Positions 3,333 through 14,872 of a DNA stretch of 25,253 bases are shown one piece after another. A program made the position numbers and the translations under genes. This stretch comes from Thermotogota bacterium (GTDB lineage: Bacteria; Bipolaricaulota; Bipolaricaulia; UBA7950; UBA9294). The first letter of the stretch is position 1; each line of letters starts with the position of its first letter. The stretch is taken from contig JBDKUT010000064.1 in assembly GCA_039679545.1 (NCBI GenBank), positions 1 to 25,253 of the forward strand, written 5' to 3'. Under the pieces are notes generated by a model. That model worked only from the letters and a program-made list of their open reading frames with translations, was not told the origin of the DNA and did no database searches.

Positions 3333-6020
3333 CTAGTGAATGCCGTACTTGCGCTTCCGCGCCACAAGAGCAGCTTCACCGCCATCCAGGACACCGAGCA
3401 CTGCATCCCGAATCGGGCTTTCGGAGCAGGCGAGAAACCCGCTGTTCGTGATCGTGCCGATCGAGCCGTTCGACTCGACATGCATGATGAGCTCTGAGTC
3501 AGTTAGCACAACAAGATTGGCGTTGTGTGACGTCAACACGAACTGCTGGTTCACCTTGCGCGCGACGAACTCTGGCGCCACCACGTCCGCAATGTGTCGG
3601 TTGTCCAGGTTGTCTTCGGGCTGGTCGATGACGAGCGGTCCCTCACTGATCATGACAAGGATCGGGAAGATCGCCGTGCAGCGCTGGCCCGCTGAGACGT
3701 TCTGGATAGGGGCGAGATTGCCGTTGGGCAGGACCATCGAGAGCTCCACGTCGTCGTCATCAAGCACGCTCAGAAACTCTACTACTTCAGCCTTCCAGAG
3801 CAGGCTGTCGATTGCCCATCCGGGCGCTTCGGTATCGAAACGGGAGTAGCCGTCAAACAGGTCGCGAAGGCTCACGTAGCTATCGGCGCTGCCGTACCTT
3901 TCGAGGTACCTGAACAGCTCCGTTGCCGTAGCTCCATAGGATCTCGCGTACCTCTCTCGGCCCGTCCTGTCGGCAGATTTCTTCAGTTTGGCATGGGTAC
4001 CCGCATTCCGCGAGTTGATGCGCTGTACCACATCCTCACGGAGGGCCACAATCCTGGCGCGGTCGGTGCAGATCTCCTCGCACGAGGCGCGAATCGTCGA
4101 CGCCAACTGGCGAATCTCCACCGCTATGCTCTCGCACTCGCGTTCGATCTCCGGCAGCGACTTCGTCTCCTCAATGATCTGGATCTGCCTGGTAAGCACA
4201 TCCCTCTCGGCTGCCGGCAACGCATTCACCTTTGGGTCGTACACGTTCGCACGAAACCCCGAGAAGGCCGCCTTCGCCTCAGCAAGAAGAGCGCCGATCC
4301 TCGCAGCGACGCCAGAGAAGCCCTCTGCAAGTCCGTCGCGGGACCGATCACGAAGCACCCGTAGTGCTTCGTGCTCCGCCTTGGCCTCTGCAACCAGAGG
4401 TTGTATCTCTGCCGGGTAGGATTGCGGAGCCGCTAGGTCATCCGTGAATGCTCCAAAGAGCGTGTCGAGACCAGTTTCGACATCCTGTCCCGCCTTGGCG
4501 GCTGCCTTGCTCAGAGCAGTCAGGCGCTGTTCGCAGGCGAGATGCGCTTCGTAGTCCTTCTGCAGCGCTGCGAGCTTCGCTTCCTCCAACTTCTCGAGGG
4601 TCTTCCTCTTCTCGCGTAGAGCGTCCCGCCTCGTTAGACTCTCGTTCAGGTGCTTCAGCTTCCGCTGGAAGACTGGGAGCTGGTCACGAGCTGCCTCAAC
4701 TTCCTCGTCAATGGCTCCATGGAGCCGGTGTACCTCTTCCTCAATCCCGACTCTATCGAGGAGTGAGATCCGAGCCCGCGCGTCATCTGCGATACCCTCG
4801 ATCTCGTGCCAGCCAAGCACCGACGCTCGGAAGCCGGCTTGCTGAGCATCTTCTACCTCCTCCGGTGGAGCTCCGTCACGGTGCACAACCAGGCGGCCCT
4901 GCGAGTCTGCTCGCCTAGTCAGAAGTAGCTTGCTGCCTGAGGCCGACTCCACAAGGCAGGAAACGAACCCGCTCGATCCGAGGACGTGAGACACATGGCT
5001 TGCGATTTCCTTGGCGCGCTTCTCCGGCAGCGCGGTGCCTAGGACAAACCGCAAGCACTCCAGAATCGCCGTCTTGCCCGAGCCTTTGCAGCCAATAAGG
5101 CAATTCATGCTGGGATTCAGCAGTATCCATTCGTCGCGGATGAACTGACCGCAGATGCGGAGACCGACGATGCGTCCAGTAGGAACAGGGGGTTCTTCTA
5201 GTTGTGTCCGCCCTCGGAATGCCAAGGCCTCCTGAACCTCAAGGAAGGTGCAGTACTCGCACTTGACCCACGTGTAGCGGCTCCGGCTGGCTAGGTGCTC
5301 GTGCGAGTGCGCATCGCTTGAGCGGACGCAGGTTGCGTGGGGAATGGTCAGCCCAGCTGACGTACGCTGGTTCCCCCTGAAGAACCCCGCGGTGCGTTCG
5401 TCGAGCACCTCCAGCGCGCTGAAGATGCCTTCACTGACCCACTGCAGGAACGCAGGGTCATCGTAGATATCATCGATGCTGCGCGACTTCGACGGCTGCC
5501 TAGACTGGTGGAGGTGTGCCGGGATGAAGAGAGCTCCCTCGTCGCGGAAGAACCTCGCGACATCGTCCACACTGGAGGTGTACCCCACGACGCCCGTCTG
5601 ACTCGTTCGGCTCGCCAGTTCCTGATGAGCCTTCTCCAGGATGAAGCTGTAGTCCTGGCGCTGGTTCGGATCGATGATGACGAGGCAGTGGTAGAACTGG
5701 TCCTTCGCAATCTTCTTGTCCACCGCATCAACGAACAGGTTGATCTCTGCGCCAGGAAGGAGAGTGACACCCGGAGATAGCCGCTGCAGTCTCTCGAGCG
5801 TCTCCCTAGGCGTCACGCGGCCATGCTCGACTATGGCGGCGATTGAGTACCCGCCAGTGGCCAGTGCGCTCCCCAGTTTCTCGAATGCGTCCGGCGCCCT
5901 ATACTCGTATCCTGGGTCAGTTGGTGAATGAACGTGCAGATCTAGCTTCCGAAACACACCCCCCAGCGGCCTGGAGTGCCGGACGAGTTCCGCCTCAAAC
6001 TCCGCAACATGGTTCGTCAT
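3333..6020 (-). CDS. PHP phosphoesterase fused to coiled-coil SMC/ABC-type ATPase (Ppl/TrlF-like, probable anti-phage protein)
   Basis: PHP motifs DLHVHS, GAEI, YHCL, PAHL, SSDAHS; Walker A GCKGSGKT; long coiled coil; signature VSAGQR; Walker B/D-loop LVIDQPEDNLDN; H-switch TSHNAN. Codon usage looks less GC3-biased than the flanks. Confidence 0.85.
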   Translation of the reverse strand: MTNHVAEFEAELVRHSRPLGGVFRKLDLHVHSPTDPGYEYRAPDAFEKLGSALATGGYSIAAIVEHGRVTPRETLERLQRLSPGVTLLPGAEINLFVDAVDKKIAKDQFYHCLVIIDPNQRQDYSFILEKAHQELASRTSQTGVVGYTSSVDDVARFFRDEGALFIPAHLHQSRQPSKSRSIDDIYDDPAFLQWVSEGIFSALEVLDERTAGFFRGNQRTSAGLTIPHATCVRSSDAHSHEHLASRSRYTWVKCEYCTFLEVQEALAFRGRTQLEEPPVPTGRIVGLRICGQFIRDEWILLNPSMNCLIGCKGSGKTAILECLRFVLGTALPEKRAKEIASHVSHVLGSSGFVSCLVESASGSKLLLTRRADSQGRLVVHRDGAPPEEVEDAQQAGFRASVLGWHEIEGIADDARARISLLDRVGIEEEVHRLHGAIDEEVEAARDQLPVFQRKLKHLNESLTRRDALREKRKTLEKLEEAKLAALQKDYEAHLACEQRLTALSKAAAKAGQDVETGLDTLFGAFTDDLAAPQSYPAEIQPLVAEAKAEHEALRVLRDRSRDGLAEGFSGVAARIGALLAEAKAAFSGFRANVYDPKVNALPAAERDVLTRQIQIIEETKSLPEIERECESIAVEIRQLASTIRASCEEICTDRARIVALREDVVQRINSRNAGTHAKLKKSADRTGRERYARSYGATATELFRYLERYGSADSYVSLRDLFDGYSRFDTEAPGWAIDSLLWKAEVVEFLSVLDDDDVELSMVLPNGNLAPIQNVSAGQRCTAIFPILVMISEGPLVIDQPEDNLDNRHIADVVAPEFVARKVNQQFVLTSHNANLVVLTDSELIMHVESNGSIGTITNSGFLACSESPIRDAVLGVLDGGEAALVARKRKYGIH

Positions 6021-6034
6021 TTCGCCACGTGCGA

Positions 6035-6064
6035 AGTCTATCGCGATCCCTAGCAGCAGCGCAA
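6035..6064 (-). promoter_or_regulatory. Possible promoter for the PHP-ATPase gene
   Basis: TTGCGC - 18 nt - TAGACT, ending 14 nt upstream of ATG 6020. Confidence 0.35.
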
Positions 6065-6341
6065 TGCTACGCTCTCCTCAGAGAAGTGCACTGCTTGGCC
6101 ATGGCGGGTCGTCGCGGCCCAGTCACCTGTCCAGCGCGCTGCGACTGGTCCGCATTCTGCCTCAGAGTCGCCCGGCGCGAGGGCGGGTTCAGCCCTTCAG
6201 TGGCCCGCCCGCTCGCAGTCCGCGCCTCTTCCTGACGCGTGCGACAGCACTCTCGTCTGCATCTTGATTGCTGCGCCGGAGAGGTTGTATCAATGCCGGA
6301 TGACATGGCATCTCTGGTGTCGTTCCGGACACGCCCGCCGC

Positions 6342-6398
6342 GTGTGCGGCAATAACCCTCCCGCGTTGAGCCTCGCGCCGTCTCTCTGAAGGATCGTG
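6342..6398 (-). pseudogene. Degenerate, frameshifted relic of an aconitase 3' end (att-like repeat)
   Basis: 6342-6365 matches 8852-8875 at 20/24 nt (12-nt exact core). Translation HDPSERRRE-(frameshift)-LNAGGLLPHT parallels the aconitase C-terminus QDLSEREKAMLRAGGLLAYT. Confidence 0.65.
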
Positions 6399-6479
6399 CG
6401 GTGTGGCCCATTCCCTCCAGCGCTGGCACCCCGGGCTCGCAGCGCGTCTCAAAGCAGCACGAGGTACGATCCGCGAAGG

Positions 6480-8228
6480 TCAGTAACAGCAGTAGCCCTT
6501 GTTGTGGCACACCACGCCTTGCGATACAAACCTGTGCGATGGGAAGTCCACAGTCAGGTCAAAGACTTCGAACGCGCCGTGCTCGACGACTATGCGTCGG
6601 ACAACCTTCAGGCTTCCGTCCTCCGCACGAAGCCTCGTCCCTTCCGCGACCTGACCGGCAAGTACAACACCGTTCGACCCAAACAGCGGCTGGCTAGGAG
6701 TAAACCGTGCCGTGTCATCGAGCTTCACGAGCGCACTTGCACGTCTCACCGTGATCGCCCCGATCCGCCCGGGGCTCGGCCGCCAATCTGCGGTACTGCA
6801 CGTGACCTCGTCCCCTTCTGGCACTTCCTCGCCGCGTCGCACACCCCCTGGCACCGGGACCTCCCCCCCCAGCGGTATGCAACCCCCACCTCCCGAGGAG
6901 CGTGACTTGGGCGGAGTACGAGGCAAGGAGTCGCGCAAGCCTGGCGGAAGCAGACTCAGCAGCAGCTGGCGCTCCTCTCCCAACACTAGGCGAAGGTCTC
7001 CATCTTTACCCATCGCATGCACCACGTTCTCCGGCACCAGGCCGGTTGCCGCCCAGTCACCGCCGAGGCCCTGCGTGACACGAATACCGAACTCGCGGGC
7101 TGACGCGCGAAGCAGTTGTCTCCTCCGACTCGGGTCCGCGGTCTCCTCCGCCATGAGGCTGTAGACACACGCGGCGTTGAGATGGAGCCGATCCCGCACA
7201 TCCGGCGGCAAGTCCCGCTCCATGGACGCAAGGCACAGCAACTGGCTTTCGGCTTCAGCGAATGCATCTTTGCTGAGCGCGTGAACGACGGCAGCCATGG
7301 TAGCTCGCGACGGCTGATGGAGCAGCATTGGAAAGACCTCCAGCACTCGCTGAGCTGACACCGCGCCCTGGAAGCCAGCAGTGGTGGCGGCGCCGACGGG
7401 TTCACCTTGGAAACGCACGTGAAGCAGCAGCTTGCGGAAACGCATGGGCTGCGGCAGGTACTTGTTGCAGATGCTCACGACATTGCTGAGGTACTCCATC
7501 CGTCTGGCCAATTCGCCAACCATCGACTTCTGAATGCCACGTACCGAGACGAGGCGGAGTGGGTCTTCCCGATGTAGCACCAGGTTCACGTCAATCTCAT
7601 GTGTGATCCCGTCCGCTGCTATGCCCCGTGTCCGGCTCCGGGCGATCCAGGGCCAGTCGCCAGCCGCGGAGTCCCCGATCCTGATTCGCAGCACACGATC
7701 CGCTCTTCGGCAGTCCTCATCGAGCTCATCTGCAAGGACCACAAGCGCGGCGACCTTCGCCAGGTCTATTTCGTGGCTGCCTGTTCTCTCCATGTTGGCC
7801 AGCTCGCTGAGTCGCTCATCCAGTCTGTCGCCGCACCCGTGGCACCGAACCACAAGGTTCACGTACTCCTTGTCTTCCTCGCCTAGCACGTAGGAGTTCG
7901 TCTCGGCCTGCACGATCTCCCCCGAAACCCGCGGATGGTCCACCGCGCCTCTGAGACGCCCAACGTCGTGATACAGCACGGCGGCAAGCGCCAAGAAGAG
8001 CTCATGCCCGCGAATCCCGTCCTTCCCGATCGGCGTACCCGCAAGGCAACCGTCCAGTTTCTCCAGGACCCTCGTGATGTGCTCTGGGCCGTGCCCCTCT
8101 CCACCAACCGCGGCGTACTCGACGCTGAGCAGCCTGTGCTTCAAGACCTGATAGCAGGAGAAGTACGTGGTATCTGCACGACGTGAGAACTTGCTTAGCT
8201 TGGACTCTATCGCTAGTGCGTCGCACAT
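6480..8228 (-). CDS. HD-domain phosphohydrolase (HD-CE-like) + TPR-like region + C-terminal Hint/intein-like domain
   Basis: Start moved to ATG 8228 (RBS AAGGAGG). HD motifs HGPEHITRV, AAVLYHDVG, DHPRVS, VRCHG, LVVLADELD; TPR-end motifs LNAACVYSL and KDGDLRLV; GGGG|CIPLGGEV ... VFDLTV...HRFVSQGVVCHN|KGYCCY. Confidence 0.8.
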   Translation of the reverse strand: MCDALAIESKLSKFSRRADTTYFSCYQVLKHRLLSVEYAAVGGEGHGPEHITRVLEKLDGCLAGTPIGKDGIRGHELFLALAAVLYHDVGRLRGAVDHPRVSGEIVQAETNSYVLGEEDKEYVNLVVRCHGCGDRLDERLSELANMERTGSHEIDLAKVAALVVLADELDEDCRRADRVLRIRIGDSAAGDWPWIARSRTRGIAADGITHEIDVNLVLHREDPLRLVSVRGIQKSMVGELARRMEYLSNVVSICNKYLPQPMRFRKLLLHVRFQGEPVGAATTAGFQGAVSAQRVLEVFPMLLHQPSRATMAAVVHALSKDAFAEAESQLLCLASMERDLPPDVRDRLHLNAACVYSLMAEETADPSRRRQLLRASAREFGIRVTQGLGGDWAATGLVPENVVHAMGKDGDLRLVLGEERQLLLSLLPPGLRDSLPRTPPKSRSSGGGGCIPLGGEVPVPGGVRRGEEVPEGDEVTCSTADWRPSPGRIGAITVRRASALVKLDDTARFTPSQPLFGSNGVVLAGQVAEGTRLRAEDGSLKVVRRIVVEHGAFEVFDLTVDFPSHRFVSQGVVCHNKGYCCY

Positions 8229-8268
8229 GCGAACTCCTCCTTGTCGGCGATGCTCCACCCGCGAGGTC

Positions 8269-8277
8269 AGCATAGCA
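8269..8277 (-). promoter_or_regulatory. Possible extended -10 promoter for the HD-Hint gene
   Basis: TGcTATGCT about 40 nt upstream of ATG 8228. Confidence 0.35.
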
Positions 8278-8545
8278 TGGAGGCTATCTCCCCGTACTTC
8301 AAGAGCGGAAAGCCTCCACTAACGGCGCTTGTGCGGTCCTGGTTGGGCAGCGCGGACGCGTAGATTCCAGCTGAACCTCCGAGCCTTGATCTCACCAGAC
8401 TTCGAGGCTGCCTGACACATGCGGTTTCGCTCGTCTGGCAAGGGCATCATGCCACTAGCACCAATGTCCGGCGAGCAGCAGAATCCTAGCTCGTCTGTTG
8501 CACGGCAGGGCCATGGGGTCAGATCTTCGCTCTTTTCCTGCCGCG

Positions 8546-8588
8546 CAACGCCCGACCGCGCGGCAGCTGCAGCCGCCGCCAGGCGTTG
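8546..8588. repeat. Imperfect 43-bp inverted repeat
   Basis: CAACGCCCG-accgc-GCGGCAGC-tgca-GCCGCCGC-CAGGCGTTG forms a long bulged hairpin in the island's non-coding arm. Confidence 0.5.
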
Positions 8589-8832
8589 ACCTACGCGGCC
8601 TCCACCGGCGACGTGCCCAGAACGTGATGTGCTGCAGTCACAGGTTCCGCCAAAGAGAGAGCGGACGCCCAGCCCTCCAAGGCCTGCGCCCGCTCCCCAA
8701 GGCTCCGGATGAGTCTACTCTCTACCGGATTGGCATCCCTAACCCGTTCGCGACTCCGCGCGAGCTTTCTCGCACAGGGTCCGGATCAAGGACGGAGGCC
8801 AATCCGCCGTCCCGATGTCCGGCGCCTAACGC

Positions 8833-10725
8833 CTACGCGTTATGAGTGGCAGTATACGCCAACAACCCTCCCGCGCGAAGCATCGCTTTCTCCCGCTCGG
8901 ACAGGTCTTGCTTCGCGGGGATCGTTGTCTTCTTGGTGAGGTTCTTCACGACGAGGTCCGGCTCGAGCTTGGACACATCGATCTCGAGCTGGTCTCCCTG
9001 GTCGATCAGGTCGGTGTTGCAGGTGATCGGCAGGATCCCCATGTTGATCAAGTTCGCGCGGTGGATGCGCGCGAAGCTCTTGGCAAGAACGGCCTTGATG
9101 CCGAGCTTCCACGGCGCGAGGGCCGCGTGCTCGCGCGACGAGCCCTGTCCGTAGTTGTCGCCGCCGACGATGAATCCGCCGGCCTTCTCCACGGCGCGCG
9201 CGGCGAACGTCTTGTCCTCGTAGTGGAACGTGAACTTCGCGATTTCGGGCAGGTTCGACCGCAGGTGCTGCGTGAGCGGTCCGGCCGGAAGGATCGCGTC
9301 GGTCGAAATCCCGTCGCCGACCTTGAGCAGCGCTTCGCCCTTGAGCACGGACGGCAGCGACTTCTGGTTCCCGAGCGGCGCGATGTTGGGCGCGCGGCGG
9401 ATCTCCACCTTCGGACCCTGCGGCTCGAGGATCAAGTAGTCGTCGACGGTGAGCTTCTCGACCTTGATCTTCGGCGCGGGCAGCTCGCGCGGGTCGGCGA
9501 TCGCACCCTTGAGGGCGGAGGCGGCGGCAACTTGCGGGCCGCACAGGGCCAGCTTGCCGTCCTCGTTCCCGCCGCGTCCTTTCCAGTTGCGGTTTACGGT
9601 GCGCAGCGAGAGGTGGTTTGTGCCCGGGACGAAGCCGATGCCGATGCACGCGTTGCAGCCGGGTTCGATCATCCGCACGCCGGCCTTCGTCAGCTCGAGG
9701 AAGCTGCCGTCTTCCATCAGCATCTCCCACGCCTGGCGCGATCCGGGCGACACGATGACGTCGATCGCCGTCGACACCTTCTTGCCCTTCAGCATCTCAG
9801 CGACGATCTTGATGTCCTGGTACGAGCCGTTGGTGCACGAGCCGATGAACACCTGGTCGATCTTCGTCCCGGCGACCTTCTCGATGTCGAAGACGTTGTC
9901 GGGCATTCCGGGCATCGCGACGAGCGGCTTCACCGTCGCGAGGTCGATGTCGATCTGCTTGTCGTAGACGGCGCCCTCGTCGGGCGAGAGCTCGCGCCAA
10001 TCCTTCTCGCGGCCCTGCATCTTGAGGAACTTCTTCGTCACGTCGTCGGACGGGAAGATGGACGACGTCGCGCCGGACTCGGTGCCCATGTTCGTGATGG
10101 TCGCCCGCTCCGGGACCGTCAGGTCCTTCAGGCCCGGCCCGACGAACTCGAGGAAGTAGCCGACGCCGCCCTTGACCGTGATCCGCCGCAGCACCTCGAG
10201 CGCGACGTCCTTCGCGCCGACGTTCGGCGATAGCTTCCCAGCCAGAACGATCTTCATCATCTTCGGGACCGTCAGGTAGAACGGCCCGCCGCCCATGCAG
10301 ACGGCGACGTCCATCCCGCCGGCGCCGATCGCCAGCATGCCGAGGCCGCCGCCCGTGGGGGTGTGGGAGTCCGACCCAATGAGCGTCTTTCCCGGAACAC
10401 CGAACCGCTCGTAGTGGATCTGGTGGCAGACGCCGTTCCCGTTCTTCGAGAACTTGGCGCCGTAGTGCGAGGCGATGGTCTGCAGGAAGATGTGGTCGTC
10501 GGTCGACTCGCCCTTGAACCCGAGCGAGGTGTGGTCGGAGTACGACACGGCGAGCTCGGCACGAACCTTGTCGATCCCGAGCGCCTCGAACTCGAGCCAG
10601 GCCATCGTCCCCGTGGAGTCCTGAGTGAGGCACTGATCCATGCGAATGCCGATCTCGGTCCCGCGCTTCAATTCACCTTCGCGCAAGTGCTGCGCGAGGA
10701 TCTTCTCGGTCATGGTTTGCGGCAC
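8833..10725 (-). CDS. Aconitate hydratase (short, Aquifex-like putative aconitase type)
   Basis: Likely start GTG 10725 (RBS GAGGTG), giving (M)PQTMTEKIL; motifs LTQDSTGTMA, GVCHQIH, GSDSHTPT, GSCTN, PGCNACIG (three cluster Cys), ISTDAILP, NYGQGSSREHAA, SFARIHRANL. Confidence 0.9.
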   Translation of the reverse strand: MPQTMTEKILAQHLREGELKRGTEIGIRMDQCLTQDSTGTMAWLEFEALGIDKVRAELAVSYSDHTSLGFKGESTDDHIFLQTIASHYGAKFSKNGNGVCHQIHYERFGVPGKTLIGSDSHTPTGGGLGMLAIGAGGMDVAVCMGGGPFYLTVPKMMKIVLAGKLSPNVGAKDVALEVLRRITVKGGVGYFLEFVGPGLKDLTVPERATITNMGTESGATSSIFPSDDVTKKFLKMQGREKDWRELSPDEGAVYDKQIDIDLATVKPLVAMPGMPDNVFDIEKVAGTKIDQVFIGSCTNGSYQDIKIVAEMLKGKKVSTAIDVIVSPGSRQAWEMLMEDGSFLELTKAGVRMIEPGCNACIGIGFVPGTNHLSLRTVNRNWKGRGGNEDGKLALCGPQVAAASALKGAIADPRELPAPKIKVEKLTVDDYLILEPQGPKVEIRRAPNIAPLGNQKSLPSVLKGEALLKVGDGISTDAILPAGPLTQHLRSNLPEIAKFTFHYEDKTFAARAVEKAGGFIVGGDNYGQGSSREHAALAPWKLGIKAVLAKSFARIHRANLINMGILPITCNTDLIDQGDQLEIDVSKLEPDLVVKNLTKKTTIPAKQDLSEREKAMLRAGGLLAYTATHNA

Positions 10726-12851: not shown

Positions 12852-13856
12852 TCAGAACCTCCTCACGAAGGTCGAGGCAACGAGGACGAGCTTCTCACGC
12901 GTCGAGAGGGAGACGCGGTCAGCGAAGACGTTGAGGCCCAAAGCCTCGATCCGGTCGAGGATTCGGCCGTAGATCTCGGCGAGGAGCCAAAGACACGGTC
13001 TTCCGGCACGGGACACAAGCGGCACAAGGCCAAGCCCGTCATCGAGGAGCGAGCGCGAGCGCTCGGCGTGGGCGCGCAGTAGCTCTCGCAGTGCCGGGGT
13101 CATCGTCCGCGCGCGGAAGGCCGTCTCATCGACGTTATGGCGAACGAACGCCTCGCGGGGAAGGTAGATCCGGCCGCGGCCGAGGTCCTCGTCCACGTCG
13201 CGGAGCACGTTCACGAACTGCATGCCGAGCCCAAGGGAAATCGCCTTCTCCCGCATCGCGTCGGTCGGCGGCACGCCGTCCGTCAGGATCGGCAGCGTCG
13301 CGAGACCGACGGCGGAGGCGACACGGTAGGCGTAGGCTTCGAGCTCGGCGTCCGTCTCCATCCACTCGAGTTCGAGGTCCATCTCCACGCCGTCGAGGAT
13401 CTGGACGACATCATCGGGATCGATGCCGTAGCGAGCGATCGCGTCGGCGAGCGCGACGTCGCGGTTCGTCTCCGGCCGGCCCTCGGCCGCCGCGGCAAGC
13501 CGTCCCCGCAGCGCCGCGATTCCTTCGCGCCTCGAATCGCTGGAACCAACCTGGTCATGGAGAAGCGTGGACTCATCACGCTTCTCCTTAAGTGAACCCG
13601 AAGGGTTCGCGACACGGTCCGAGAGAACCGCGATGGCAGAGCGGTTCTCAGTAAGCGAACGCCGCACGTCGGATGGGGCGGCATTCGCGGCGCTGTCCGC
13701 GACATCATCCAGTTCTCTGCAGAACGCGTAGAGCGCATAGACAGCCAGCCGCTGTCTTCGCGGCAGCGAGAGGAAGGCGAAGTAGAAGTTTCGTGCCTCT
13801 CTTCGCGTGATCTCCGCGCACTCGACGTACGCCGACTTCAGATCCATCGTTTCCAC
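12852..13856 (-). CDS. hpnD: Presqualene diphosphate synthase, with an internal in-frame insertion (alternative start ATG 13847)
   Basis: NFYFAFLSLP, YAFCRELDDVAD, YRVASAVG, QFVNVLRDVDEDLGRGRIYLP. Confidence 0.88.
   Translation of the reverse strand: METMDLKSAYVECAEITRREARNFYFAFLSLPRRQRLAVYALYAFCRELDDVADSAANAAPSDVRRSLTENRSAIAVLSDRVANPSGSLKEKRDESTLLHDQVGSSDSRREGIAALRGRLAAAAEGRPETNRDVALADAIARYGIDPDDVVQILDGVEMDLELEWMETDAELEAYAYRVASAVGLATLPILTDGVPPTDAMREKAISLGLGMQFVNVLRDVDEDLGRGRIYLPREAFVRHNVDETAFRARTMTPALRELLRAHAERSRSLLDDGLGLVPLVSRAGRPCLWLLAEIYGRILDRIEALGLNVFADRVSLSTREKLVLVASTFVRRF
13559..13688 (-). repeat. Four tandem hairpins inserted in frame within hpnD
   Basis: Stems: GGAGAAGCGTG/CACGCTTCTCC (13559-13587), GAACCC/GGGTTC (13594-13608), GAGAACCGC/GCGGTTCTC (13623-13649), GCGAACGCCGC/GCGGCATTCGC (13655-13688). 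Confidence 0.75.
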
Positions 13857-14872
13857 CGCCGTCCGGCAAGCGTGGAGAGGAGAATCCCCACTTTCTCCAT
13901 CTTACTCACGGTCGGCCGCTGGGAGAGCGTGTCGTAGTTCTGGCGCTCGATCTTGTCGAGGATCGCCAGGCCGCCGCGCGAGAAGAGGGCGAGGTCGACG
14001 CGCAGGTGGCCCGAGACTCGATCGAGGAGCGGCAGACCGCGAGCGAAGTAGCCGCGAGCCCGCTCGACCTGAAACCGAAGCAGCCGTCGGACCGATTCCG
14101 ACGCCGTCGCCGTTGCGAGGTCCTCGTCGCGGACGCCGTACTCGGCCATCTCGTCCTGCGGCAGGTAGACGCGGCCCATCTCGTAGTCCCGCTTTACGTC
14201 CTGCCAGAAGTTGGCGAGCTGGAGGCCGATGCACGTCGCGTCGGAGAGAGCGTTTTCTTCTTCGCCGCCGCGTTCGTAGAGGCCGAGGACGAGCCGCCCG
14301 ACGGGGGTCGCCGAGTGCTCGCAGTAGTGGAGAAGGTCGGCGAACGTCGCGTGGCGCTTGTCTCGCTGGTCCATGCGGTTCGCTTCGATGAGGCGGGCGA
14401 ACGGCTCACGGGGAAGGTCGAACCGTTCGATCGTCGGCCGCAACGCCACGAAGATCGGATGCCGCGGGGCGCCGGCGTACGTAAAGTCAAGCTCGGCTTC
14501 GAACTCGTCGAGGAGCGCAATACGGTCCGGTACAGTGCCGTCCGAGGCGCGACGCCCGTCAAGCGCCCAGCCTTCGTCGCCGAGGTTGTCGACTGTACGG
14601 CAATAGGCATAGACAACGGTGAGGTGCTCGCGCATCGCTTTCGGAGCAAGCCACGACACCACAGTGAAGTTCTCGCCCTCCGCTCGGGTGAGAGCGAGGC
14701 ACAGATCTCGCGCCTCCTCGAACGTCGCCACCCGCGCTGCCGGATCCGCGAGCGTGCGACCGACGTCAAGCTCCTGGGCCCGCGCTGCGTAAGGCCTCTC
14801 CCGCCCATCAGATGTTCCTGCGCGGGCGCGAGCCGCGCCAGGTCCCCTGTCCTGTGCGCGGGAACTCACCAT
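13838..14872 (-). CDS. hpnC: Hydroxysqualene synthase (squalene synthase HpnC); start uncertain
   Basis: ENFTVVSWL, YAYCRTVDNLGDEG, YCEHSATPVGRLVL, LQLANFWQDVKRD, GRVYLP; start placed at the ATG/GTG overlapping the upstream stop. Confidence 0.88.
   Translation of the reverse strand: MVSSRAQDRGPGAARARAGTSDGRERPYAARAQELDVGRTLADPAARVATFEEARDLCLALTRAEGENFTVVSWLAPKAMREHLTVVYAYCRTVDNLGDEGWALDGRRASDGTVPDRIALLDEFEAELDFTYAGAPRHPIFVALRPTIERFDLPREPFARLIEANRMDQRDKRHATFADLLHYCEHSATPVGRLVLGLYERGGEEENALSDATCIGLQLANFWQDVKRDYEMGRVYLPQDEMAEYGVRDEDLATATASESVRRLLRFQVERARGYFARGLPLLDRVSGHLRVDLALFSRGGLAILDKIERQNYDTLSQRPTVSKMEKVGILLSTLAGRRWKRWI

Follow-up and report, generated by a model that had tools for sequence, protein, structure and literature searches.

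The hopanoid gene hpnD examined here encodes a protein with an additional stretch directly after its first Asp-rich motif, and at the nucleic acid level this stretch forms a series of hairpins. The initial annotation had proposed either a new coding-compatible MITE or palindromic element, or an RNA structure within the gene. We therefore asked what this insert is, at which level it is constrained, and how it might have arisen. The DNA analyzed, hereafter the window, is a stretch of 25,253 nucleotides (contig JBDKUT010000064.1 of GenBank assembly GCA_039679545.1, Bipolaricaulota in GTDB), and the genome to which it belongs (G000) is 93.6% complete.

The hpnD gene and its neighborhood

The minus strand of the window carries a hopanoid cluster comprising hpnH, ispG, shc, ispH, yjbQ, hpnC, hpnD, and hpnE, and the nearest named proteins of the window are from Candidatus Bipolaricaulota. 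The open reading frame with the insert (12852..13856, minus strand, likely ATG start at 13847) is flanked by hpnC and hpnE and lies near shc. Its top NCBIfam match was TIGR03465 (HpnD, E 3e-64), with a score of 216.4 bits that is below the curated cut-off of 278.6, and the match is split in two by the insert. Since inserts split the profile matches in this way, real hpnD genes fall below annotation cut-offs. The product contains both Asp-rich motifs and shows a CrtM/HpnC fold (best Foldseek matches CrtM-like, E 1e-15). In its AlphaFold model the CrtM-like core has high confidence and residues 61-97 have pLDDT values below 50. Judging from the profile match and the model, the gene encodes a putative presqualene diphosphate synthase resembling HpnD. 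The insert is likely a tolerated, floppy loop of this protein, since translation is predicted to continue through it and to yield a disordered segment.

Several other features of the window are recorded here. At approximately 14500-14580, hpnC in this genus has 12-14 inserted residues in the corresponding loop, which follows its own first Asp-rich motif, with hairpins present in some alleles. At residues 176-200 of hpnD (approximately 13255-13330), close relatives show unusual conservation of silent sites (16-18 of about 20 four-fold sites), and one common fold was not evident in this region. Between aconitase and an IclR-isocitrate dehydrogenase pair, 3333-8273 holds a gene for a TrlF/Ppl-like AAA ATPase and one for an HD-CE domain protein, which are possibly a defence insert.

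The insert is a tandem pair of two-hairpin units

The four stems and the roughly 45-50 extra residues initially noticed after DDVAD were both confirmed: the stems lie at 13688-13559, and the gene has 47 more codons than insert-less orthologues. All features described below are on the minus strand. The DDVAD codons of the first Asp-rich motif are at 13695..13709, and the in-frame insert of 141 nt begins at the last of them (13557..13697); because both ends fall on an Asp codon, it can be placed equally well at 13554-13694. Alignment with orthologues, which had been suggested for fixing the boundaries, gave this length and also revealed what the initial annotation had missed, namely that the insert consists of two tandem units, that relatives carry 0-5 copies of the unit, and that much of the sequence is derived from the gene's own codons. 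The DNA of the insert had been described as AT-richer than the gene, which holds in direction (GC 0.617 versus 0.66 for the rest of the gene), but the difference is small.

Each unit consists of an Asp codon with a degenerate copy of the DDVAD codons, a hairpin A, a short linker, and a hairpin B with a GAGAA...TTCTC base. Unit 1 (13620..13697, 26 codons) is formed by the degenerate codon copy, hairpin A1 (13655..13688; 11 bp including one U-G pair, with a 12-nt loop), a TTACT linker, and hairpin B1 (13623..13649; 9 bp, perfect, with the GAGAA...TTCTC base), and alleles with a single unit, for example L005 and one on a contig of sequencing run X6, lack it. Unit 2 (13557..13619, 21 codons) duplicates, in register, the part of the ancestral host gene that runs from DDxxD up to the next helix, and this copy now forms hairpins A2 (13594..13608; 6 bp, with a loop of 3 nt whose plus-strand reading is cGAAg, a DNA mini-hairpin type) and B2 (13559..13587; 11 bp, perfect, its first arm consisting of Glu-Lys codons). 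The host segment then resumes at 13527..13556 with Asp, seven residues, and Arg-Arg at the ancestral spacing, as judged from 32 of 160 tips of a tree of flanking sequences that have exactly this loop length and no insert. When set against insert-less alleles, unit 2 matches their ancestral segment without any gap, both at Glu-Lys-Arg and at an invariant Leu further on. It scored 20.2 bits (p 5e-5 by shuffling) against a profile built from 28 of these alleles, and p was still 1e-4 when the first five columns were omitted. Because unit 2 is in register with the ancestral segment, its GAGAA corresponds to host Glu-Lys codons. Thus, the loop that follows the first Asp-rich motif contains two units in tandem and in frame, each made of two hairpins.

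Contigs from three DNA runs of three studies (X2, X3, and X6) cover the insert, so an assembly error is unlikely; X2 comes from the study that may also be the source of the window. Among the contigs listed for X2, none spans the entire insert with both flanks, and the break is at 13484-13554. An RNA run (X8) yielded no matching sequence, which speaks neither for nor against expression.

Copy number of the units in relatives

The hpnD gene was present in 54 of 74 genomes of the family. The insert was absent from 11/11 measured genomes of g4, 4/4 of g9, 4/4 of g15, 3/3 of g2, 3/3 of g8, 2/2 of g6, and 2/2 of g5, and was present in those g1 genomes having the gene, in most of g3, and in 2/3 of g14. 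At this one site, orthologues carry between zero and five units, with five reached in metagenome loci. A longer loop was found at 110 of the 160 tips of the flank tree, several tips of exactly ancestral loop length were nested among insert-bearing ones, and at least 22 changes of loop state were required (shuffled mean 42.7, minimum 36). These changes are counted without direction as gain or loss on a tree in which some genes occur twice and from which 15 proteins without the anchor motif and one mis-parsed tip were excluded. The inserts keep the frame and contain no stop codons in all parsed loci, which are in frame by construction; 13 of 20 unparsed loci have both hpnD ends, and in these too the ends lie in one frame. 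When the DNA of 41 relatives was searched, the insert was found solely at the orthologous site in four genomes of the same genus, together with one weak match, and co-conversion of the flanks with the insert was not seen. In locus L053 (genome G052), the same loop contains an unrelated insert of 17 residues built of a 12-nt simple repeat, indicating that the hpnD loop tolerates other inserts.

Folding, conservation and covariation

The region 13525-13695 folds at -85.7 kcal/mol, with z values of -6.9 for the coding strand and -5.8 for the opposite strand (0/200 shuffles each). For the 141-nt insert, comparison with codon-order shuffles, which had been proposed at the outset, bore out an unusual fold (z -5.8, 0/300), as did uniform synonymous recoding (z -6.1, 0/300). 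The value was only -2.2 (3/300) when recoding followed the GC-richer codon usage of the genome. Folding equal to that of the insert occurred in 6 of 126 ordinary coding windows and in 0 of the 39 with GC up to 0.66.

Among loci L001-L003, the insert is equally conserved at all three codon positions (identity 0.81-0.87), and in the flanks identity is 0.61-0.66 at third positions and 0.55-0.60 at four-fold sites. Within the insert, 69-71 of 78 paired and 47-49 of 63 unpaired positions are identical, and paired third positions (23/26) exceed four-fold sites (79/140) with p 0.002. Paired positions are therefore more conserved than a neutral process predicts, so that some selection or a recent exchange of the cassette is needed. 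The covariation analysis suggested at the outset found compensatory changes in the stems: for hairpin B, 95.5% and 93.6% of alignment cells were paired and 9 and 14 cells had changed on both sides (0/500 shuffles), in modules that had been chosen for pairing by a filter that failed in 9 of 33 insert loci. This covariation extends to the outer base pairs, and rare T-ending codons are used in the insert, keeping the stems. The initial view of an in-frame palindromic feature at the nucleic acid level was thus upheld by covariation that is real across orthologues, and these sequence comparisons suggest that the constraint acts on the nucleic acid.

Hairpin A behaves differently from hairpin B in that it differs wholly between lineages. 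Its 3' arm is a perfect reverse complement (at least 6 nt) of the codons ending the DDxxD motif of its own gene in 18 of 32 inserts, compared with 1 of 25 insert-less alleles, and the matching run averages 5.4 nt against the own host and 3.2 nt against other hosts. In the window this run is merely 2 nt, because hairpin A pairs there with the duplicated copy of the motif codons. As the sequences are related, the p-values are overstated. Unit 2 of L001 and L005 is identical at 50 of 51 nt, though their four-fold sites are 61% identical; between L005 and L037 it is identical at 34 of 51 nt, with four-fold sites at 83%. One conserved flank stretch is as alike between L001 and L005 as the insert (59/60 nt), so the discordance among L001, L005, and L037 only suggests an exchange of the cassette.

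Hairpins of DNA or of RNA

The hexamer CUUCGG had been taken as a sign of a stable RNA tetraloop. Although these letters are present, the loop closed by the perfect stem is the 3-nt UUC, and a cUUCGg tetraloop would need a bulge. On the plus strand the same loop reads cGAAg, and close relatives have cGTAg and cGCAg; with a bulge permitted, these can equally be read as UNCG on the sense strand. The loop letters thus vary as TTC, TAC, and TGC, all cGNAg on the other strand, and this, together with the absence of a sense-strand preference for G-U, speaks against an mRNA structure with a UUCG loop. None of four tetraloops was GNRA or cUNCGg. GNA triloops on either strand were found in 8 of 10 hpnD hairpins (7 antisense), 10 of 20 IorA hairpins (7 sense), and 4 of 9 hairpins of the intergenic family described below, compared with 3/35 in coding background and 1/20 after stop codons; this test was devised post hoc and on related sequences. 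Internal stem mismatches were sense G-U in 5 of 27 cases in hpnD, 0 of 8 in IorA, and 16 of 27 in post-stop hairpins (pooled Fisher p 3e-4), and p was 0.05 for G-U against A-C mismatches alone. It has been reported that hairpins of the d(GCGAAGC) type are unusually stable in DNA, melting at 76.5 C, with 39 C quoted for one RNA counterpart (PMC13037366). GNA triloops on either strand and the missing preference for sense G-U point to hairpins of single-stranded DNA rather than to a UUCG loop in mRNA, and the mismatch and triloop patterns together favor such hairpins. An Rfam covariance-model search found nothing in the insert and one chance match (E 0.83) outside it.

Related hairpins elsewhere and the search for a mover

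The genome-wide BLASTn search suggested for finding further copies returned none: at word sizes of 11 and 7, the insert had no other match below E 0.1 in its own genome. Without a sequence copy elsewhere in the genome, it is not an element of the MITE or Rickettsia type. The structural class, in contrast to the sequence, does recur, and calling the insert a coding-compatible palindromic element was fair in that its GAGAA hairpin belongs to a class seen repeatedly in this lineage. Spaced GAGAA pairs in G000 had a paired inner stem in 13 of 93 cases (background 3.65%, p 3.5e-5 uncorrected), compared with 1 of 69 in the reverse orientation and 0 of 59 in the insert-less relative G089 (1.26 Mb), a value not itself below background. 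Short-gap GAGAA palindromes were not enriched in coding DNA (37 versus 37.3 expected). A 9-bp stem identical to that of B1 is found at G000 C48:3054, and intergenic repeats of relatives have it too.

An IorA-like gene (L266, G000 C126:7000-9400; orthologues L392-L417) provides a second, independent example. Its inter-domain linker of 41-147 residues contains in-frame, variable tandem arrays of GAGAA hairpins with copies of the host codons that come next, either duplicated or inverted, and these arrays vary among genera. In operons of the xanthine-dehydrogenase type, hairpin modules were seen clustered at subunit ends and in a fusion linker (G000 C48:3054, C48:3602-3690, C34:1369, C126:9811 and 10496; L309), one of these sites being common to genus g14. 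Several GAGAA hairpins lie directly after stop codons or between cistrons, and other purine-led hairpins resemble ordinary terminators.

Outside genes, the pattern GGAG(AA/TT)...(TT/AA)CTCC-C(T/G)AGC gave 116 matches in 22 of 74 genomes versus 5 control matches. This tagged family is centered on g1 (5/5 genomes) and g12 (8/8), with up to 21 pattern matches per genome; because the pattern was drawn from G000, its 14 matches there are circular. Some intergenic sites are mosaics of alternating GGAG...CTCC and GCTGC/GCGAC hairpins with CTAG or CGAG joints, some of them beside tRNA genes (G000 C9:23000-23290, C21:11200-11500, C45:4670-4760 and 7800-8900, C91:1-460, C133:15060-15500; L429-L458). The intergenic family and the hpnD units share a geometry of two hairpins with a spacer of about 3 nt. 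The GAGAA hairpin is accordingly of the same structural class as the lineage's intergenic REP/BIME-like repeats, either by descent or by convergence from Glu-Lys codons.

A genome-wide flood of in-frame hairpin inserts was considered and rejected. In 567 orthologue pairs from 1.26 of the 1.8 Mb of G089, a survey in which hpnD itself falls below the 45% identity filter, only 1 of 22 in-frame insertions in G000 relative to G089 had a stem of at least 8 bp, not of the GAGAA type (control 0/24). A covariance model of 12 long-loop modules (R1) had strong matches at hpnD alone and weak ones elsewhere, which is not a census because 80 candidates per genome were scored. Viral contigs gave seven pattern matches, none with a paired inner stem, and these were taken as chance.

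Y1 transposase genes occur in 63 of 74 genomes, but none of 70 Y1 loci examined (of 161 matches) is bracketed by hairpin units, and five have one or two nearby. The Y1 loci that were read carry inverted-repeat ends of their own or a separate GTAG-CGTCG repeat. One RAYT-like Y1 class is flanked by GTAG-CGTCG palindromes (L241, L245, L246, L261, L230); such repeats are present in G000 (C8:30360-30600, C32, C97), where this class was not found. Two more Y1 classes, of about 220 and 290 aa, have their own terminal inverted repeats (L228-L265, G000 C150:26470-27310, C7:16877-17404), and those of about 220 aa frequently terminate in GAGTTCC, a sequence similar to the base of the intergenic hairpin. 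As for host repair genes, sbcD exceeded its family cut-off in none of 74 family genomes (five weak matches), xseA was found in 65 of 74, and neither differed between insert-bearing and insert-less lineages. Rho is present.

Comparison with known palindromic elements

MITEs have terminal inverted repeats of 15-30 bp and near-identical multiple copies. Here no terminal inverted repeat encloses the insert, which folds as separate local hairpins, and neither a second copy by blastn of its own genome nor a cognate transposase among the 70 Y1 loci was found. A possible target-site duplication would consist of the Asp codon at both ends, together with the degenerate 15-nt copy of the motif codons in each unit. 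Like Rickettsia palindromic elements (PMC3733652), the insert is palindromic DNA read in frame within an intact, working gene; those elements, however, are described there as multi-copy and recognizable by sequence in many ORFs, whereas blastn found no further copy of the hpnD insert, and hairpin inserts in frame are uncommon across the genome. The insert is thus neither a MITE, as had been proposed, nor a Rickettsia palindromic element.

A close likeness exists to intragenic REPs of the GTAG/CGTC type, for which Di Nocera et al. (2013, PMC3733652) describe stems 5-13 bp long, pairs of units separated by 1-5 nt, clusters in which units and flanking DNA are repeated in tandem, in-frame copies that encode 20-82 residues, and CGTC families without a dedicated transposase. 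The hpnD units share the short paired stems, adjacent dimers, tandem clusters with flanking DNA, and in-frame copies, and no dedicated transposase was found for them among the 70 Y1 loci. Unlike these REPs as described there, they carry neither GTAG (nor GYAG, GYRG, GTRG, or GTMG) nor CGTC as a tag, the plus-strand linkers in the window being GTAA and TTAA; their inner stems are hypervariable; and one hairpin arm equals the host's catalytic-motif codons and follows them between lineages. The intergenic relatives have CTAG or CGAG, again not the REP tag. As a dispersed family, the hairpin class has the 13/93 paired cases and 14 tagged matches, but the unit sequence itself is single-site by blastn, with no near-identical dispersed copy. 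E. coli BIMEs similarly have a two-hairpin unit, a copy number that varies at one locus, and a single-stranded DNA substrate, and TnpA-REP works on such DNA and is able to build tandem arrays of BIMEs (PMC3333891). According to that account, BIMEs differ from the hpnD units in being extragenic, conserved in sequence, and associated with a flanked transposase gene; no RAYT gene flanked by the repeat was found among the 70 Y1 loci. The hpnD units resemble intragenic REP dimers and BIMEs but lack the tag and, among the 70 Y1 loci, a flanked RAYT gene, and are not classed as a member of either.

Template switching can create and maintain hairpins (PMC8794818), acts within coding DNA (PMC8604942), and palindromes overlapping coding sequence have been described (PMC6649704). 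The insert shares with these cases the inverted copies of adjacent sequence, the compensatory changes, and the overlap with coding sequence. The cases described concern RNA genes and yeast or mitochondrial genes, whereas the hpnD hairpins recur as pairs that form one unit, have a fixed GAGAA base, and change in tandem copy number. In titles and abstract openings of the literature on Bipolaricaulota palindromes or hopanoids, such an insert was not described.

Origin and maintenance of the insert

We consider it probable that the hpnD insert is a DNA-level hotspot of duplication and fold-back in a tolerant loop. The observations behind this reading are the kept frame, the 0-5 units, the compensatory pairing, the match to host codons, the register of unit 2, and the GNA triloops. 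Single-stranded DNA at the site would fold into stable GNA-capped hairpins, and fold-back copying by the polymerase (template switching) would write inverted copies of adjacent host codons and re-perfect the stems once those codons change. Slippage or recombination between direct repeats may add or remove whole units, and selection would purge variants that are out of frame or contain a stop codon. The same pattern in the IorA linker, with host codons duplicated and inverted, counts for the hotspot. The absence of sbcD above its cut-off is permissive for the upkeep of hairpins and does not discriminate, as it is also missing in insert-less genera. Against the hotspot stand the excess conservation of paired positions, the host-codon run of only 2 nt in the window, the 9 of 33 insert loci in which hairpin B failed the filter, and the finding that hairpin inserts are not a general property of loops (1/22). 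An origin from host sequence alone also leaves unexplained why GAGAA hairpins turn up in unrelated genes and in arrays between genes. An unlikely, bolder version is a self-rewriting cassette of single-stranded DNA, in which a GNA-capped hairpin pair would recruit its partner arm from host catalytic codons and rewrite it when the codons change. Such a cassette would come and go, multiply, and pass between species at one site in a homing-like manner without an enzyme of its own, and would represent a class of coding DNA elements in tolerant loops by conserved motifs (hpnD, IorA, and xanthine dehydrogenase).

The excess conservation of the stems and the recurrence of GAGAA elsewhere leave room for two other explanations. 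A mobile REP/BIME-like dimer may have been inserted, amplified, and exchanged by an HUH enzyme of the Y1/RAYT type, the likeness to host codons being target microhomology. This fits the intergenic family with its shared geometry and exact 9-bp B1 stem, the wide occurrence of Y1 genes, the near-identity of unit 2 in L001 and L005 despite their diverged four-fold sites, and the activity of TnpA-REP noted above. We regard it as doubtful, given the absence of bracketing hairpins from all 70 Y1 loci examined, window units without a GTAG/CGTC tag or a blastn copy, weak covariance-model matches outside hpnD (among the 80 candidates scored per genome), and a flank stretch shared by L001 and L005 as closely as the unit. 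A selected mRNA structure could instead mask the catalytic-motif codons, pause the ribosome or polymerase, and tune hpnD/hpnE output or mRNA decay. Strong folding, covariation, stems conserved above silent sites, and pairing that follows host codons all speak for it, as do GAGAA hairpins after stops or between cistrons in a genome with Rho. It is nevertheless quite improbable: sense G-U pairs are not preferred, none of the four tetraloops is of a stable RNA type (GNRA or cUNCGg), the antisense strand gives GNA in 7 of 10 triloops, no Rfam family matches, and the structure is repeatedly absent in close relatives, with 0-5 copies.

If the insert were removed or skipped at the RNA level, through excision as in introns or bypass by the ribosome, the loop would regain its ancestral length. 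Intron guide sequences pair with upstream coding sequence, and hairpin A does so too. This is nonetheless very improbable, considering that inserts are in frame and free of stops in all parsed loci (with the 13 of 20 unparsed loci having both ends in one frame), that no catalytic RNA family matches the insert, whose small size and variability are far from what a ribozyme core requires, and that the protein model tolerates the loop. Hardly credible is an ordinary variable protein loop with hairpins by chance. The z value of merely -2.2 against genome-codon-usage recoding and the small insert at the same loop of the paralogue hpnC would suit it, but the stems number four within 135 nt and covary across genera, all codon positions are equally conserved, and rare T-ending codons keep the stems; chance is already contradicted by the covariation, the codon-position conservation, and the tracking of host codons.

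Implications

In-gene palindromic repeats are known, usually as near-identical copies within one genome. The hpnD site can be traced across a family, where it holds 0-5 units, has undergone many gains or losses, and has stems that follow the host's catalytic codons. It is thus a natural test case for how hairpins originate and are kept, by template switching or by selection, for the origin of REP-like repeats, and for how enzyme loops gain 20-120 residues. If the self-rewriting cassette were true, it would be a new way for selfish DNA of a non-coding type to persist beside conserved motifs.
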